From Vulcanimicrobiota bacterium (lineage in GTDB: Bacteria > Vulcanimicrobiota > Vulcanimicrobiia > Vulcanimicrobiales > Vulcanimicrobiaceae): a DNA stretch of 64,000 nt. Where the stretch lies: the NCBI GenBank assembly GCA_963820825.1, contig CAWGBN010000006.1, forward strand, positions 576,001 to 640,000, in the 5' to 3' direction. The position numbers and the translations under genes were made by a program. Below the pieces are notes generated by a model. The model saw only the letters and a list, made by a program, of their open reading frames with translations, ran no database searches and was not told the origin of the DNA. Shown piece by piece: positions 43,119 to 53,880 of this stretch; the first letter of the stretch is position 1; each line of letters starts with the position of its first letter.

Positions 43119-43930
43119 TGACGTGAGGTGAGAAAACGGCTCAAGTTGAAACTGTGAGTTCCGGGCCTCTGGCCCTAGGAGACTCACGTGAAGAAAACCC
43201 GCTTCACCGAAGCCCAGATCGTCGCGATCCTCAAGGAGCTCGACGCGGGCACGACCGCGACGGAGCTTGGCCGCCGGCACGGAATTCATGCCAATACGAT
43301 CCGCCTGTGGCGCGATAAGTACGGCGGCCTGGAAACCAGCGATCTGACCCGGCTCAAGCAGCTCGAAGCCGAGAGTGCGCGAAAAGACCGCGTGATTGCG
43401 CGGCTCACGATGGAAGTCGATGCGGTTCGCGAGCTGATCGCAAAAAACGGCTGGGGCCCTCGCACCGAAAAGAAGCTGTGAGGGCGCTTGAAGATCATGG
43501 TCTTTCCCGGGTACGAGCTTGTACGATCATCGGGCAGCCCCGCCGCACACTGTATTATCGGCGCAAGCCTAAACCGCACGACACGGCGCTCATCGAGCGC
43601 ACCAAAGAGCTTGCGCAAGAACGACAGCGTTTCGGTTGGCGGCGGCTGATCATCATGGTGCGTCGCGACTTGGTTGGCGTCGGAGAATCGCGATTCCGCC
43701 GGATTTATCGCGACCTTGGGCTGCAAGTCCACCCGAGAAAAAAGCGTAAGGTTCGGTACGTGCGTGGGAACACGATTGCTGCGGTAGCTCGACCGGACGA
43801 GCGTTGGTCGATCGACTTCATGCACGATCGGCTCGCGACCGGCCGAACAATCCGAACGATGAACGTGGTTGACGACTACACGCGAGAGTGCTTAGCAATC
43901 GATGTCGCTTTCTCGTTTGGGAGCCACGAC
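43119..43930 (+). mobile_element. IS3-family element 1, truncated at 3' end
   Basis: orfA 43188-43481 (MKKTRFTEAQI), A6C slippery site 43443-43449, orfB from 43478 with WSIDF..VVDDYTRECL, broken off after FGSHD. Confidence 0.88.
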
Positions 43931-44400
43931 AGTCTGGGCGTTGGAGCTGATGTACAAAGAGAAGCTGCATCCGGCGATGTTCCACGAACTGCAGGACGGG
44001 ATCGTGCGGCTCGATCCCGAATTTGACGGGACTCCTCGCTTCGGTGCTCATGCCGAAGTTCCGGAAGGCCGCGCTAGAGCTCGCGAATGACTACGCCAAG
44101 GAGCTCCGCCGGATTACCGTGCCGCGTCGGCTGGTTCGGGAAGGTCCGAAGCCGATCGCGGAGCGGCGGGGATCGTGGGAACGCTCGGCGTGCGGGTATT
44201 GCAAAAAGCCGCTGCCCCGCAAAGGGCTGAAATACTGCGGACGCGATTGCTATCTGCGCTATAGCATCGAGGTGGCGAAGCCGATCGCAAAGGCGCATGC
44301 GCGTCTCGCGGAAATGCGCGCAATCGGCCTCAGGCCGGGGCACGGGGGCGAAGCCGCGCGGAAGCGAGGCGCGATACTTGCGGAGAATAATCGCCGCGGG
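43931..44400 (+). pseudogene. Probable C-terminal remnant of a solo Cas1 (casposase-like) gene with Zn-finger
   Basis: Across one frameshift (~44022): WALEL..FHELQDGIVRLDPE-LTGLLA..CGYC..YCGRDC..GHGGEAARKRG; resemblance from memory only. Confidence 0.45.
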
Positions 44401-45415: not shown

Positions 45416-46050
45416 TTAGTCTCTCCCCTCGCTAGAACTGACGAGGAGTCCATTCTACTTCACGAAGCAGCCCTCATTTGCAGAATCTTCAAAACTAAAG
45501 ATATTCCGGTAACCTTGTATACGAGGCGAGCAGCCCGCGCTGTAGCCGGTTCCTAATGACTCGTTTCGCGAGCCAGCGCTGCAGTTATTGACGGGTACCC
45601 ACTTACGCCATCGAAGATAGGTGGAGAGTTTTCGTAGTTGGAGGTCTCCCCGTTTTTACTCCGCGGCCTCTCCAGAAATGACGGCGAGCTGAGTGATGTT
45701 CTTCGCGCGCCGGGCGTACTCTTCCGGTGAGAGATTTCCCAGCGAGCTGTGCGGGTGATTGGCGTTGTAATCGCGGCGCCACGCCGTGGCCTGCACGCGG
45801 GCATCCGCAAGCGATCGGAACCAATTCGGGTTGAGCAGTTCCTGTCGCACGCGGTTGTTGAACGATTCGCAAAAAGCGTTATCTGACGGGCGCCCGGGCC
45901 GCGAGAAGTCGAGCTTCACCCGATTCCAGTAGGCCCACTGATCCAGCTGCAAAGATACGAACTCTGGGCCGTGATACATACAAGACGGGGCGCTGCCCCC
46001 ATGGCGAACGGAGGTGTATCTGACTCATCTCCGCTGGAGGCAACGACCCT

Positions 46051-47313
46051 ATGGCAAAGTTCCGTGCTGCTCCAACGACGCCCGCCTGGCTCGCAATCGA
46101 CGTCGCCAAAAACCGACACGTGGCGCTGCTGGAGGACGAGGCCGGCATTCGCCGGCGTTTGACAGTTCCAAACACGCAAGAAGGTTTCGACGAGTTGGCA
46201 GGGATTCTGGCGCCGCATCTTCCCTGCGAGGTCGCGCTGGAACCAACCGGAGACTATCACCGACCCCTGGCGAACTTCTTGCTCCGGCGAGGCCACCGCG
46301 TTCATTTCGTATCGTCGATCGCTACAAATCGGACGAGAGAAGCGCTGTTCAACTCGTGGGATAAAAACGATCCGAAGGATGCGCAGGTGATTCTGCATTT
46401 GCTCAAGAGCGGTACAACGCAGGTGTTCGCCGATCCACTGCAACGTGGCAACCAAGATCTTCAGGAACTGCTCGGTACCTATCGGCAGATCACCGACCGA
46501 AAGACGCGAGCCTACCATTCGCTGATGACGCACTATTTGCCGCTGTACTTCCCGGAAGCAGAGCCCTTCCTGAGCAATCCGCGCGGCGAGTGGTTCTTGG
46601 AGGTCATGCGCATAGCGCCATGCCCTTCCACGGTCCTTCAATATACCAAAAGGACATTCGTCAAAAGGTTTACTGCAGCGGGAGGGCATTTTACATCTCG
46701 GCAAAGTCTCGTCGCCAGCTACTACGAAATTGCCAAGGAAAGCGTGGGAATTCCAGTGGCGGCGGATTCGCAGGCCGCCCAGATGTTCCAACTCGCGATT
46801 GAGCAGTACATCGGCCTCATGAAGCTTCGACGGCAGCTTCAGGAGCTCATTGACGCACAACTCGAGAACAACATCGATTATCAGCGCCTGCGCTCTATCC
46901 CTGGAATCGGCCCTATTGTTGCTCTAACGGTTCTCGCTGAAGGCGGAGATTTACGCCGCTTCAGCCACCATCGCAAATTTCTTAACTACTGTGGCCTTTC
47001 TTTGTCGACGATGCAATCCGGAACGTCACGCGGCCGACCGCAGCTCTCCAAACGCGGCAATGCTCGACTGCGATGGGCCTTCTGGATGGCAGCCAATGCT
47101 GCCATCAATCAGCGCCGAAACTCGTTTCGGAAAAAGTACGACGACTACGTTCGTCGCGATCCACTGGATGCCGATCTCAAAAGAAGAGCGTATGTCGCCG
47201 TAGCAGCGAAGATTGCGCGCGTCGCTTACGGCTTGATCAAATCTGGAAAAGAGTACCGCCACTATTTCGAAGCGGCGGTGCACGACGGGAGAATCCCTTC
47301 GCTGGGCCGTTGA
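46051..47313 (+). CDS. IS110-family DEDD recombinase/transposase
   Basis: LAIDVAK, ALEPTG, KNDPKDA (DEDD); IPGIGP, QSG, SKRGNARLR. Confidence 0.93.
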   Translation: MAKFRAAPTTPAWLAIDVAKNRHVALLEDEAGIRRRLTVPNTQEGFDELAGILAPHLPCEVALEPTGDYHRPLANFLLRRGHRVHFVSSIATNRTREALFNSWDKNDPKDAQVILHLLKSGTTQVFADPLQRGNQDLQELLGTYRQITDRKTRAYHSLMTHYLPLYFPEAEPFLSNPRGEWFLEVMRIAPCPSTVLQYTKRTFVKRFTAAGGHFTSRQSLVASYYEIAKESVGIPVAADSQAAQMFQLAIEQYIGLMKLRRQLQELIDAQLENNIDYQRLRSIPGIGPIVALTVLAEGGDLRRFSHHRKFLNYCGLSLSTMQSGTSRGRPQLSKRGNARLRWAFWMAANAAINQRRNSFRKKYDDYVRRDPLDADLKRRAYVAVAAKIARVAYGLIKSGKEYRHYFEAAVHDGRIPSLGR

Positions 47314-47430
47314 GGCGACTACGACCTCGTAGATAATGCTCGGATCTCCCGATCGGCAGCAAACTCCGTTTTGAGCTCGGTGAAGGCTCGTTTCCGAGAC
47401 CTTGTGTCATCATGGTTGGAGCTATTGCGT
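47283..47430 (+). ncRNA. Predicted bridge/seek RNA (copy A)
   Basis: Two stem-enclosed internal loops matching the target (CTGGGCCGTT, GATAATG) and the donor junction (AGCTCG, ATCATG); boundaries approximate. Confidence 0.7.
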
Positions 47431-48414
47431 CGTCGAGGGGCATCTCGGCAAGGGTGTGCAAGCTCGGCTTTGCTGTCGACGGGCATCGTTATGCCTACTA
47501 GTGGGGTTGACTTTCGTACTTAGCTCGTTATCGCAGTGGATCCGTTGCGGTGATCCACGCTCGGCAACGAGGCGGCGAAGTACCTCGACGACGTCGGTCG
47601 ATTTGAACCCCGAGGCCACCTCGAGGGCAAGGCTCTCGCGAGTAAATGAATCGACTATGGTTAAAAGGCGAATCTTGGTGCCGTCAGCGAGCACGTCGTG
47701 CATGAAGTCCATGGCCCAGCTCTGATTTGGCGCGCTGGGTACGACCCGTTCTGTCCGCACGACTGCGGCGCGCCGGCGTTTGGGTGTTTTCGTACGGATT
47801 GCGAGGTTTTCTTCGCGATAGATCCGCCGCACGCGCTTGCGATTGACCTGCCAGCCTTCACGCCGCAACAGGATCGTGATCCGTTCGTAGCCGTAGCGAA
47901 TGCGCGTGTGAGCGATCTCCTTGATCCGAGCGCGCAGAATGGGATCGTCGCGCTTGACGGGGCAGTAGTGCACCATCTTGCGATTGATGTCGAGTACGAC
48001 ACACGCCCGCCGTTCGCTCAAGCGCCAGGCCTCGCGCACCTTTGGCAGCATGACTGTGCGGCGCACCTGCCTCACCACTTTTTTTTAACGACGTCCTGCA
48101 AGACCTGACGATCCAGCGTCAGATCTGCAACGAGTCGCTTAAGGCGCGCGTTTTCGTCACGTAGCTGACGCAACTCGCGGATCTCCGGCGTTCCCAAACT
48201 GCCAAAACGCTTGCGCCAGGCATAAAACGTTGCCTCGGAGATTCCCAACTTGCGGGTGATATCGGCGATCGGCGTGCCGGCTTCGGCTTGGCGCAGGGCT
48301 GCGGCGATCTGCTCGTCGGAGTAGCGGGACTTGCGCACGGGCGAACCTCCTGTCGGTCGGTGTTCGCCGCCATTTTCTAGTTATCCGTGGCGTAAAATCT
48401 TGGGAGAAGACCCC

Positions 48415-51100: not shown

Positions 51101-52103
51101 GGACCCAGATCACTGGAAATCGCGGGGTTTGAGCCCCGGAATCTAGTCCAATGGGAATTGTGGGTTTCCGGCCAAGATGGCCTGCAAAGGAGACCCGCAT
51201 GCGCAAGCGACGCTACACCGAAGCGCAAATCGTCGCGATCCTTCAAGAGCTCGACGCCGGCCGATCCGCAGCTGAGCTCGCTCGCAAACACGGCGTTCAC
51301 GTCAACACGCTGCGACTGTGGCGAAGCAAATACGCCGGGCTCGACATCAGCGATCTCACCCGTCTGAAAGAGCTCGAATCCGAAAACTCGCAGATGGAGC
51401 GCATCATCGCGCGTCAAGCCCTCGAGATCCGCGCGATGTCCGAGGTGATTCGAAAAAACGGGTGGGGCCCTCAGCGCGCAAGGAAGCGGTGAGGGCGTTA
51501 GAGGCCGAGGGGATGAGCCAGCGGCAAGCGTGCCGCCTCGCGACCTGCCCCCGACCGACCGTACGATACAAACCACGCAAACGCCCCGGCGACGAGCACG
51601 TCCGCGATCGGTTGCGTTGCATTGCGCAAGAGCGGCCGAGATTCGGATGGCGCCGGCTTAAGATCCTGCTCAAGCGTGAAGGCCTCGTGATGAACCACAA
51701 ACGCCTGCGCCGCCTGTATTGCGATGAGCGATTGCAGGTGCGACCGCGCAAGAAGCGACGCGTGCGATTGGTGCGCGGCAACGTTTCACCGGCTCCGACA
51801 AAGCTCAATGAAGAATGGGGACTGGATTTCATGCACGAAATCCTCATGACCAAGCGCAAAGTGCGGTTGCTGACGATCGAGGACCGCTTCAGCCGCGAAG
51901 GTCTCGCGGTCGACCCAGACTTTTCGATCACCAGCCGCCGCGTAATTCGAACGCTCGATGACATTGCCGAGATCCGCGGTTATCCCACGCGCCTTCGCGT
52001 TGATAACGAGCTAAGTACGAAAGTCAACCCCACTAGTAGGCATAACGATGCCCGTCGACAGCAAAGCCGAGCTTGCACACCCTTGCCGAGATGCCCCTCG
52101 ACG

Positions 52104-52251
52104 ACGCAATAGCTCCAACCATGATGACACAAGGTCTCGGAAACGAGCCTTCACCGAGCTCAAAACGGAGTTTGCTGCCGATCGGGAGATCCGAGCATTA
52201 TCTACGAGGTCGTAGTCGCCTCAACGGCCCAGCGAAGGGATTCTCCCGTCG
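52104..52251 (-). ncRNA. Predicted bridge/seek RNA (copy B)
   Basis: Same sequence as the copy A region. Confidence 0.68.
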
Positions 52252-53481
52252 TGCACCGCCGCTTCGAAATAGTGGCGGTACTCTTTTCCAGATTTGATCA
52301 AGCCGTAAGCGACGCGCGCAATCTTCGCTGCTACGGCGACATACGCTCTTCTTTTGAGATCGGCATCCAGTGGATCGCGACGAACGTAGTCGTCGTACTT
52401 TTCCCGAAACGAGTTTCGGCGCTGATTGATGGCAGCATTGGCTGCATCCAGAAGGCCCATCGCAGTCGAGCATTGCCGCGTTTGGAGAGCTGCGGTCGGC
52501 CGCGTGACGTTCCGGATTGCATCGTCGACAAAGAAAGGCCACAGTAGTTAAGAAATTTGCGATGGTGGCTGAAGCGGCGTAAATCTCCGCCTTCAGCGAG
52601 AACCGTTAGAGCAACAATAGGGCCGATTCCAGGGATAGAGCGCAGGCGCTGATAATCGATGTTGTTCTCGAGTTGTGCGTCAATGAGCTCCTGAAGCTGC
52701 CGTCGAAGCTTCATGAGGCCGATGTACTGCTCAATCGCGAGTTGGAACATCTGGGCGGCCTGCGAATCCGCCGCCACTGGAATTCCCACGCTTTCCTTGG
52801 CAATTTCGTAGTAGCTGGCGACGAGACTTTGCCGAGATGTGAAGATGCCCTCCGCTGCAGTAAACCTTTTGACGAATGTCCTTTTGGTATATTGAAGGAC
52901 CGTGGAAGGGCATGGCGCTATGCGCATGACCTCCAAGAACCACTCGCCGCGCGGATTGCTCAGGAAGGGCTCTGCTTCCGGGAAGTACAGCGGCGATTTC
53001 TGAGTCATCAGCGAATGGTAGGCTCGCGTCTTTCGGTCGGTGATCTGCCGATAGGTACCCGGCACTTTGCTGAAGATCTTGGTTGCCACGTTGCAGTGGA
53101 TCGGCGAACGCCTGCGTTGTACCGCTCTTGAGCAAATGCAGAATCACCTGCGCATCCTTCGGATCGTTTTTATCCCACGAGTTGAACAGCGCTTCTCTCG
53201 TCCGATTTGTAGCGATCGACGATACGAAATGAACGCGGTGGCCTCGCCGGAGCAGAAGTTCGCCAGGGGTCGGTGATAGTCTCCGGTTGGTTCCAGCGCG
53301 ACCTCGCAGGGAAGATGCGGCGCCAGAATCCCTGCCAACTCGTCGAAACCTTCTTGCGTGTTTGGAACTGTCAAACGCCGGCAACCCAGGCCTCGTCCTC
53401 CAGCAGCGCCACGTGTCGGTTTTTGGCGACGTCGATTGCGAGCCAGGCGGGCGTCGTTGGAGCAGCACGGAACTTTGCCAT
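52221..53481 (-). pseudogene. IS110 recombinase, frameshifted copy
   Basis: Split over several ORFs; multiple indels relative to copy A. Confidence 0.8.
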
Positions 53482-53880
53482 AGGGTCGTTGCCTCCAGCG
53501 GAGATGAGTCAGATACACCTCCGTTCGCCATGGGGGCAGCGCCCCGTCTTGTATGTATCACGGTCCGGAAAACGTCGCCGGCGCGATGCTGCAGTGGTCG
53601 ATCGATCACAATGTTCTGCTGCACTTCATTGATCCGGGAAACCCGCACAGAACGCCTGGATCGAGTCCTTCAACGCTCGCGTGCGCGACGAGTTCCTCAA
53701 CGTGCAAGTCTTCAGGACTCTCCTGCAGATCCGCGAAGAGGCCGATGCATGGCTCGTGGATTACAACGAGGTTCGGCCGCACTCGTCGCTAAACTATCTT
53801 ACGCCCAAGGAGTTCATCAAAACTTTTCTACACCAATCCCACAATCGCCGGTGGACTAAGAAATGGGCTCAAACCCCCGC

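Follow-up and report, generated by a model that had tools for sequence, protein, structure and literature searches.

A predicted 3' bridge RNA in an IS110-family insertion sequence of a Vulcanimicrobiota bacterium, and the insertion of the element at catalytic codons of IS3-family transposase genes

The subject of this report is a complete IS110-family insertion sequence (45973-47528, plus strand) found in a window of 64,000 nt, the whole stretch of DNA that was analysed, from a Vulcanimicrobiota bacterium (assembly GCA_963820825.1, contig CAWGBN010000006.1, positions 576,001-640,000, forward strand; coordinates below are those of the window unless stated otherwise). Our results show that the 3' part of the element, 47283-47428 on the plus strand, very probably encodes its bridge RNA (also called seekRNA), with guides that match the element's own ends and a target site in IS3-family transposase genes. 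The recombinases of the IS110 family are described as using a bridge RNA with two loops, loop 1 for the target and loop 2 for the donor (PMC11208160), and the element is a new example of this system, which was first described in 2024 (Durrant et al., Hiraizumi et al., Siddiquee et al.).

Architecture and covariation of the RNA

An initial annotation of the DNA had read a two-loop bridge RNA in this region. All the sequence strings it quoted were found in place, and the architecture was then examined in homologs. Relatives of the recombinase were searched in one genome per species, and the best 80 of at least 583 loci encoding such relatives were kept. The homologs of this clade come from Eremiobacterota, Acidobacteriota, Nitrospirota, Alphaproteobacteria, Legionella, Planctomycetota and others. 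Among 72 distinct homologous 3' ends, 66 were aligned (alignment A1; protein identity 45-78%); two near-duplicates (L003 and L010) and four ends with an RNA interrupted within the donor loop (L012, L059, L068 and L082) were left out. The results on homologs given below refer to A1. The fold tested on it, whose 35 pairs were checked base by base, is the annotated structure with stem 1 extended outward by 3 bp (47283-85).

The conserved block spans 47275-47452 and contains the proposed RNA on the plus strand. Stem 1 is formed by CGGGAGAATCC (47286-96, extended to 47283-47296), which lies inside the recombinase open reading frame (ORF), and by GGATCTCCCG (47342-51, extended to 47342-47355), and it encloses loop 1 with the small hairpin GAGG-CG-acua-CG-a-CCUC (47312-47328). 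Stem 2 is formed by GCAA..CTCC (47359-47367) and GGAG..TTGC (47418-47428) and encloses loop 2 with the hairpin AAGG-CUCG-uuuc-CGAG-a-CCUU (47383-47403).

The comparison bore out this architecture. Over the whole fold 85.9% of 2,305 cells were paired, as compared to 36.0-53.7% when the partners were slid by 1-3 columns, changes on both sides were seen in 30 of the 35 pairs, and the observed covariation score was reached by none of 500 shuffles. The effect was spread over the helices: stem 1 (13 pairs, 10 changed on both sides, 88.3% of cells paired), the target-loop hairpin (6 pairs, 5 compensatory, 99.0%), the inner CUCC part of stem 2 (all four pairs compensatory, 93.9%) and the donor-loop hairpin, counted as helix 5 (8 pairs, 7 compensatory, 90.3%). 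This was further supported by RNAalifold, which without a given structure returned stem 1, both loop hairpins and the inner stem 2, with compensatory changes in 30 of 34 pairs. A covariance model built from A1 found exactly four RNAs in the genome (140-147 bits); they belong to the four copies of the element described below, and no orphan RNA was detected.

Two further features of the homologous 3' ends were observed beside this fold. Most homologs carry a third conserved motif, for example GGTGGAAGCCACTTGG, about 10-25 nt past stem 2 (A1 columns ~222-240), in which the two strands of stem 1 are repeated directly one after the other and which changes along with them (GCGGAAGCCGCTTG where stem 1 is GCGGAAG...CTTCCGC). 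The motif could serve as an alternative partner in pairing, or as a further site for a protein. At the corresponding place the window has a different small hairpin, CGAG-gggcau-CUCG (47432-47450). In the four 3' ends of the 72 that were set aside as interrupted, the RNA breaks off in the donor loop after the left donor guide and is followed by unrelated sequence, which in L012 encodes the C-terminus of an IS3-like transposase; such ends may have arisen by secondary insertion into the donor loop or as scars of recombination there.

Boundaries of the element and its recombinase

The ends of the element, 45973 and 47528, could be fixed because an identical, unoccupied copy of the same IS3 gene exists in the genome. 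This empty site (L088) shows 100/100 nt identity to the occupied site on either side of the insertion point, in agreement with the flanks and insertion site that had been deduced from the window. The element is 1,556 bp long with the right-hand copy of a shared CGT counted in, and comparison with the empty site shows a precise insertion with no duplication except this CGT, which is common to target and element. The left flank reads CTGGGC-CGT|GATAC (45964-45977, plus strand), where CTGGGC and the shared CGT (45964-45972) form the left target half, and the right flank reads TTAGCT-CGT|TATC (47520-47532). The left end proper (45973-46050, plus strand) is 78 nt long, whereas 215 nt separate the stop of the recombinase gene (47313) from the right end (47528), so the noncoding sequence lies mainly downstream. 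At the right end, AGCT and CGT (47522-47528, plus strand) make up the left-donor half and the core. The expected circle junction of the element is TTAGCTCGT joined to GATACAT.

The recombinase ORF (46051-47313, plus strand, 420 aa) has a DEDD (RuvC-like) domain (PF01548, DEDD_Tnp_IS110, 7.6e-21) and a Transposase_20 domain (PF02371, 8.8e-28), together with the catalytic serine motif, as expected for an IS110 bridge RNA system, and it scores 221 bits against the NCBIfam model NF033542 'IS110 family RNA-guided transposase', which has a cut-off of 140 bits. Its best matches among solved structures are the IS621 transposase (8wt6_A, E 4.1e-19) and ISCro4 (4e-18). Residues D17, E64, D107, D110 and S323 align with the IS621 motif blocks GID, IEATG, KTDTVDA and ESG. 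The catalytic residues of IS621 are given as D11, E60, D102, D105 and S241 (PMC11208158), and a residue-to-residue correspondence with this set would follow from the aligned blocks, with the numbering of the PDB chain offset by ~2.

Four copies of the element, 99-100% identical, were found in the genome. Two show no difference over their 1,556 bp, and a third has a single substitution and lacks one base; the recombinase ORF is intact in these three. The remaining copy also lies in the window (52006-53559, minus strand, 1,554 bp) and has several clustered substitutions and indels, which could be true decay or assembly noise. The frame of the recombinase gene is lost at codon 37 of this copy, and the bridge RNA (52082-52259) has the same sequence as that of the first copy.

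Guides and their match to element ends and target

Four guides can be read in the two loops, all on the plus strand. In loop 1, the left target guide CUGGGCCGU (47302-47310), which overlaps codons 418-420 of the recombinase, has the letters of the left target followed by CGT; being identical to the target top strand, it pairs with the bottom one. The right target guide GAUAAUG (47332-47338) complements the top-strand C(G/A)TT(A/G)TC, reads as the sense codons GAU-AAU-G, and complements the CGTTATC of the window with one U:G pair, as the initial annotation had stated. This agrees with the 3' side of the IS621 bridge RNA, where the guide is reported to be complementary to the top strand (PMC11208160). 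In loop 2, the left donor guide AGCUCG(GU) (47374-47381) matches the right end AGCTCGT, either over 6 contiguous nt or, as may be read from the letters, over 7 nt with base 47379 bulged, and the right donor guide AUCAUG (47409-47414) complements CGTGAT (the core followed by the outermost bases of the left end) with a single U:G pair; these outermost bases, GAT, are the right-donor half that it reads.

The left target guide had been annotated as 10 nt long. The 10-mer CTGGGCCGTT (47302-11) is indeed present, occurring twice in the 64-kb window, once per RNA copy, vs. 0.13 occurrences expected, but its tenth base (47311) varies freely among homologs, and this detail does not hold family-wide.

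The donor guides covary with the element ends. For this comparison right junctions in homologs were called without use of the guides, as a unique CGTT(A/G)TC (57 of 66 loci), and left junctions from the target motif alone (43 of 66 loci). In 53 of 57 loci the right end is the same as the four letters that precede the core C in the left donor guide; the variants AGCT, AGTA, AGGA and AGCC are each paired with their own right end. On the other side, the left end begins, in 37 of 43 loci, with the reverse complement of the three right donor guide bases beyond the core, in five variants. The proposal that loop 2 reads the joined ends is thus sustained.

The target guides behave differently, being nearly invariant. 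The right target guide is GAUAAUG in 62 of 66 homologs, and the right flanks are TGTC (30 loci), TATC (16) or TGTA (1), that is T(A/G)TC in 46 of 47. The left target guide ends in GCCGU across the homologs, with GCCAU in 3 loci, and the left flanks follow GAAYTC-NNNN-C-C(G/A)T, the antisense of Asp-Asn-Gly-x-Glu-Phe. Pairing of this guide with the flank is possible at the core and at -1 in at least 98% of loci and at -2 to -4 in 62-77%, and falls to background beyond -5. Since its target guides are nearly invariant, the clade holds to one target and hardly uses programmability in nature.

Insertion at transposase catalytic codons

The gene interrupted by the element is the orfB of an IS3-family element. 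Its N-terminal part (HTH_21 and rve domains), ending in ...RIHCD, lies at 47529-48078 on the minus strand, and the C-terminal part (rve_3), starting with GPEFVS..., lies at 45656-45970, also on the minus strand; the orfA of the same element is found at 48072-48338. On the minus strand the left target half corresponds to the codons (A)AC GGC CCA G of the rve gene, and the target site contains GAACTCTGGGCCGTTATCGCAG. The second copy in the window occupies another rve gene, at ...RLRVD|N|GPENVA. In total, all four copies split the motif D|N|GPE, in three different IS3-family rve genes, and their sites are CTGGGCCGT|TATC, CTGGGCCGT|TGTC and, twice, CCGGACCGT|TATC. All three variable positions among the four sites stay pairable with the guides as U:G or G:T.

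This site is not particular to the present genome. In the clade formed by the best-matching homologs, insertion is aimed at a single unchanging site, where the second catalytic Asp of rve (IS3-type) transposase genes is encoded within Asp-Asn-Gly(-Pro), and takes place there in antisense orientation. Four other, unoccupied sites that match CYGGRCCRTTRTC are present in the genome, vs. zero for a reversed control; three are within rve genes and one is within an unrelated gene encoding ...STDNGPEND....

Two single unoccupied sites were observed in addition. One, CCGGACCGTTGTC (G000:C6:246331-246343, L087), is guide-compatible and lies in a non-transposase gene encoding ...MYSTDNGPENDTWPDG..., which makes it a potential off-target. 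The other, CCATTATC (G001:C1:1250767-1250783, L101), lies in a gene encoding ...TFDNGSEF..., which we take to be typical of IS30-type DDE transposases, and the motif targeted by the clade may extend beyond IS3-family genes.

The guide letters that face the variable codon positions are of interest here. The two U bases of the right target guide face the third positions of the Asp and Asn codons, where just C or T occurs, and in the left target guide the third positions of the Asn and Gly codons are faced by G and that of the Pro codon by U. Judged from these letters, the guides would tolerate synonymous transitions of the Asp-Asn-Gly-Pro motif. We tentatively extend this to the proposal, which we hold as a little less than an even chance, that the present clade of IS110 elements with a 3' RNA is hard-wired to a protein motif and not to one DNA sequence, acting as a dedicated parasite and inactivator of insertion sequences, and that its junctions record chemistry on the top strand only.

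Core and asymmetry of the junctions

The initial annotation had taken CGT as the core. It is better read otherwise, the exchanged core probably being (G/A)T after a shared C. The second core base is an invariant T in the clade, in line with IS621, for which this base is described as nearly invariant and the first as free (PMC11208158). The base before this T is distributed very unevenly between the two junctions: the 48 left junctions are split evenly between G and A (24 each), whereas all 47 right junctions have G. For the loci with both junctions (n=37), we found CGT/CGT in 19, CAT/CGT in 18 and CGT/CAT in none, and CATT(A/G)TC at the right end was seen in 0 of 66 loci. The left base can differ even between near-identical elements (L009 vs. 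L011; L058 vs. L060).

These counts are best explained if the first core base at the left is derived from the target, where it depends on the Asn codon (AAT or AAC), and that at the right from the donor. Empty sites for three particular 'CAT' insertions were searched and none was found. In five host genomes the unoccupied sequence CCATT(A/G)TC gave 9 matches vs. 1 for the reversed control, and 4 of 8 translated sites were within DDE transposase genes. With moderate confidence, the asymmetry fits inheritance from the exchanged top strand and is not what full double-strand exchange of a mismatched core predicts. A 2025 preprint proposes mainly top-strand insertion, and the junctions would give natural-history support to the route it describes.

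Proposed transcription and mechanism

A -35-like box, TTGACT (47507-47512, plus strand), faces outward 16 nt from the right end, and among the 49 homologs whose right junction was called, 23 have TTGAC at a distance of 15-16 nt from the tip. A promoter at the circle junction has been described for the family (PMC11187229). By analogy, TTGACT is presumed to be one half of a promoter that is made when the ends join in the circle, with the left end of the element (45973-46050) likely supplying the -10. The box at the right end is also what supports the presumed circular form with abutted ends.

The steps from transcription to catalysis may then be pictured as follows. Transcription from the circle-junction promoter would cover both the recombinase gene and the RNA, so that the RNA is the 3' part of the transcript and is then trimmed, its 5' end arising by processing inside the ORF, as predicted near 47275-47283. 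The RNA would fold into two internal loops, each enclosed by a stem and each with a small hairpin, loop 1 for reading the target and loop 2 for reading the joined ends of the element itself. In analogy with IS621, recombinase dimers bound to both loops would bring the circular element and the target together, and the top strands would be exchanged after cleavage directly 3' of the core T (as described for IS621 in PMC11208158). The outcome would be a precise and oriented insertion without target duplication. A handshake pairing of the target loop with donor bases, as in IS621, was searched by eye and not consistently found; possibly, the GG after the right donor guide (47414-15) could pair with the target CC.

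Alternative explanations

Several observations weigh against the interpretation of the region as a bridge RNA gene that reads target and ends as set out above. Folding of 47283-47430 alone, an approach put forward in the initial annotation, gave a different minimum free energy structure, with z = -0.74 and 50 of 200 shuffles as stable. When an RNA contains large internal loops, a single-sequence fold is not informative, and we accept the structure because of the comparative evidence and not because of this fold. A scan of 45800-47700 with the 4,227 models of Rfam 15 gave zero matches at E up to 1. Stem 2 as annotated, GCAA..CTCC/GGAG..TTGC, holds family-wide in its inner part and not in its outer part: the outer GCAA/TTGC is paired in just 41.7% of cells and its register is not conserved, the outer GCAA being specific to the subgroup of the element, while close relatives have the outer stem in other registers. 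In 45900-47600, no promoter-like site was found upstream of the RNA by a promoter scan, one site within loop 1 being at chance level, and a terminator scan gave no plus-strand terminator after the RNA. The proposal to test covariation of stems and guides was fruitful for the stems and the donor guides, but the variable bases of the left target guide track their own flank weakly (2.19 vs. 1.99 of 5; 559 of 20,000 permutations as good), and many natural insertions have 1-3 unpairable bases facing this guide at -2 to -5. Finally, junctions could not be called in 17-23 of 66 loci, for causes that include short contigs and mismatches between guide and end.

If the conserved block were not an RNA at all, it could reflect conservation at the DNA level, either as inverted repeats bound by the recombinase or as coding sequence for its tail, and the matches to target and donor would be by-products. 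The unremarkable single-sequence fold fits this idea, and so does the overlap with the gene. The first 31 nt of the RNA are codons 411-420 and the stop of the recombinase ORF, confirming that the RNA begins within the gene with the left target guide over its last codons, and most homologs read even deeper: the overlap is typical of the clade, being found in 65 of 66 homologs with a median of 52 nt. However, the ORF never runs past the 3' strand of stem 1 (0 of 66 loci), and loop 2 with its hairpin is equally conserved and covarying. The paired cells also include 132 G:U vs. 37 A:C among 2,041, a strand-specific and RNA-like excess that fits an RNA of the plus strand and not a DNA cruciform, and the layout copies that of the experimentally proven IS621 bridge RNA. 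A purely DNA-level origin of the block is therefore highly improbable. A bridge RNA could also be genuine and belong to an element that is a dead, immobile relic in this genome, as the frameshifted recombinase of one of four copies (52006-53559) and the at least three compatible rve sites that are still empty might indicate. Against this stand the two identical copies of 1,556 bp and the near-identical third, all three with intact ORFs, and the spread of copies over three different IS3-family genes. This spread, together with the near-identity, argues for recent transposition, and we regard a relic as unlikely.

The class of the element is a separate matter. A guide RNA downstream of the gene is found in almost all members of the IS1111 group according to PMC11187229, and PMC11208160 gives a bridge RNA predicted in the right end of 93% of IS1111 elements, so an IS1111-group element with a seekRNA of the IS1111 type has to be considered. 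PMC11187229 describes IS1111 elements as having subterminal inverted repeats of 7-17 bp, a transposase of 330-350 aa and a downstream noncoding region, and seekRNAs in which the top-strand match lies 5' of the bottom-strand match, an order that is reversed in the IS110 type. The IS110 subgroup has, in the same source, recombinases of 395-455 aa and a noncoding region that is mostly upstream, with some exceptions. The present element shares with IS1111 the downstream noncoding region and departs from it in the other features. No subterminal inverted repeats beyond chance were seen: when the left end was compared with the last 100 nt, the best inverted match was 8 nt with one mismatch, a value equalled by 179 of 200 shuffles. 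The recombinase of 420 aa falls in the range of the IS110 subgroup, and the guides have the bottom-strand match 5' and the top-strand match 3', as in IS110, ISEc21 and IS621. Membership of IS1111 is thus very unlikely, and we file the element as IS110-type with a 3' bridge RNA, an assignment made from repeats, protein length and guide order and not from a reference tree. Such a layout, with an IS110-type RNA at the 3' end overlapping the ORF, is unusual but not unprecedented.

Genomic neighbourhood

The surroundings of the element are rich in related sequences. Just upstream, 43478-44026 (plus strand) holds a transposase fragment similar to rve/HTH_21, with an ORF of 182 aa that contains ...WSIDFMHDRLATGRTIRTMNVVDDYTRECLAIDVAFSFGSHD..., and the window as a whole appears as a nest of IS3-family remnants.

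Significance and comparison with known systems

Taken together, our results show that it is possible to recognise a bridge RNA correctly in raw sequence. The case adds a well-delimited element, with a 3' RNA, the guide order of IS110, an intact recombinase and a defined donor and target, from a poorly studied lineage, and it offers a further orthologue for the engineering of bridge recombinases. The clade-wide aim at catalytic-Asp codons clearly illustrates how one insertion sequence preys on others, and the G and U bases of the guides at synonymous positions suggest how an RNA guide may follow a protein motif through codon drift.

As compared to IS621, the element is alike in having two internal loops, target first and donor second, an invariant T as second core base, aligning DEDD and serine motif blocks, and a precise insertion with no duplication. 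It differs in the location of the RNA, which in IS621 is in the 5' left end and here follows the recombinase gene on its 3' side, with an overlap over the last codons. The recombinase of IS621 has 326 aa, vs. 420 aa here, and the similarity between the two is distant (the E-value of 4.1e-19 given above). The core is CT in IS621 and (G/A)T here, and the target guides are almost invariant across the present clade. With the IS1111 elements ISEc11, ISPa11 and ISKpn4 the element has in common a downstream guide RNA that is probably co-transcribed from the circle-junction promoter, and the targeting of conserved features of other repeats or mobile elements; it differs from them in its lack of subterminal inverted repeats, its longer recombinase and the opposite order of strand matches.

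The closest parallel in target choice is ISEc21, whose reported target in IS3-family genes is the group of codons surrounding the second D of DDE (PMC11187229). In the ISEc21 locus, which we inspected, the noncoding region is upstream of the recombinase gene, and the element inserts in sense orientation at HSD|R.G of the IS3 gene, whereas the present clade inserts in antisense at D|N|G. The recombinases of the two are 23% identical over 113 aa (E 0.11). Since orientation, site and recombinase of ISEc21 all differ, the habit that it shares with the present clade looks independently acquired, and the strategy of hitting the catalytic codons of transposases, known from the unrelated ISEc21 since 2024, seems to have arisen more than once.

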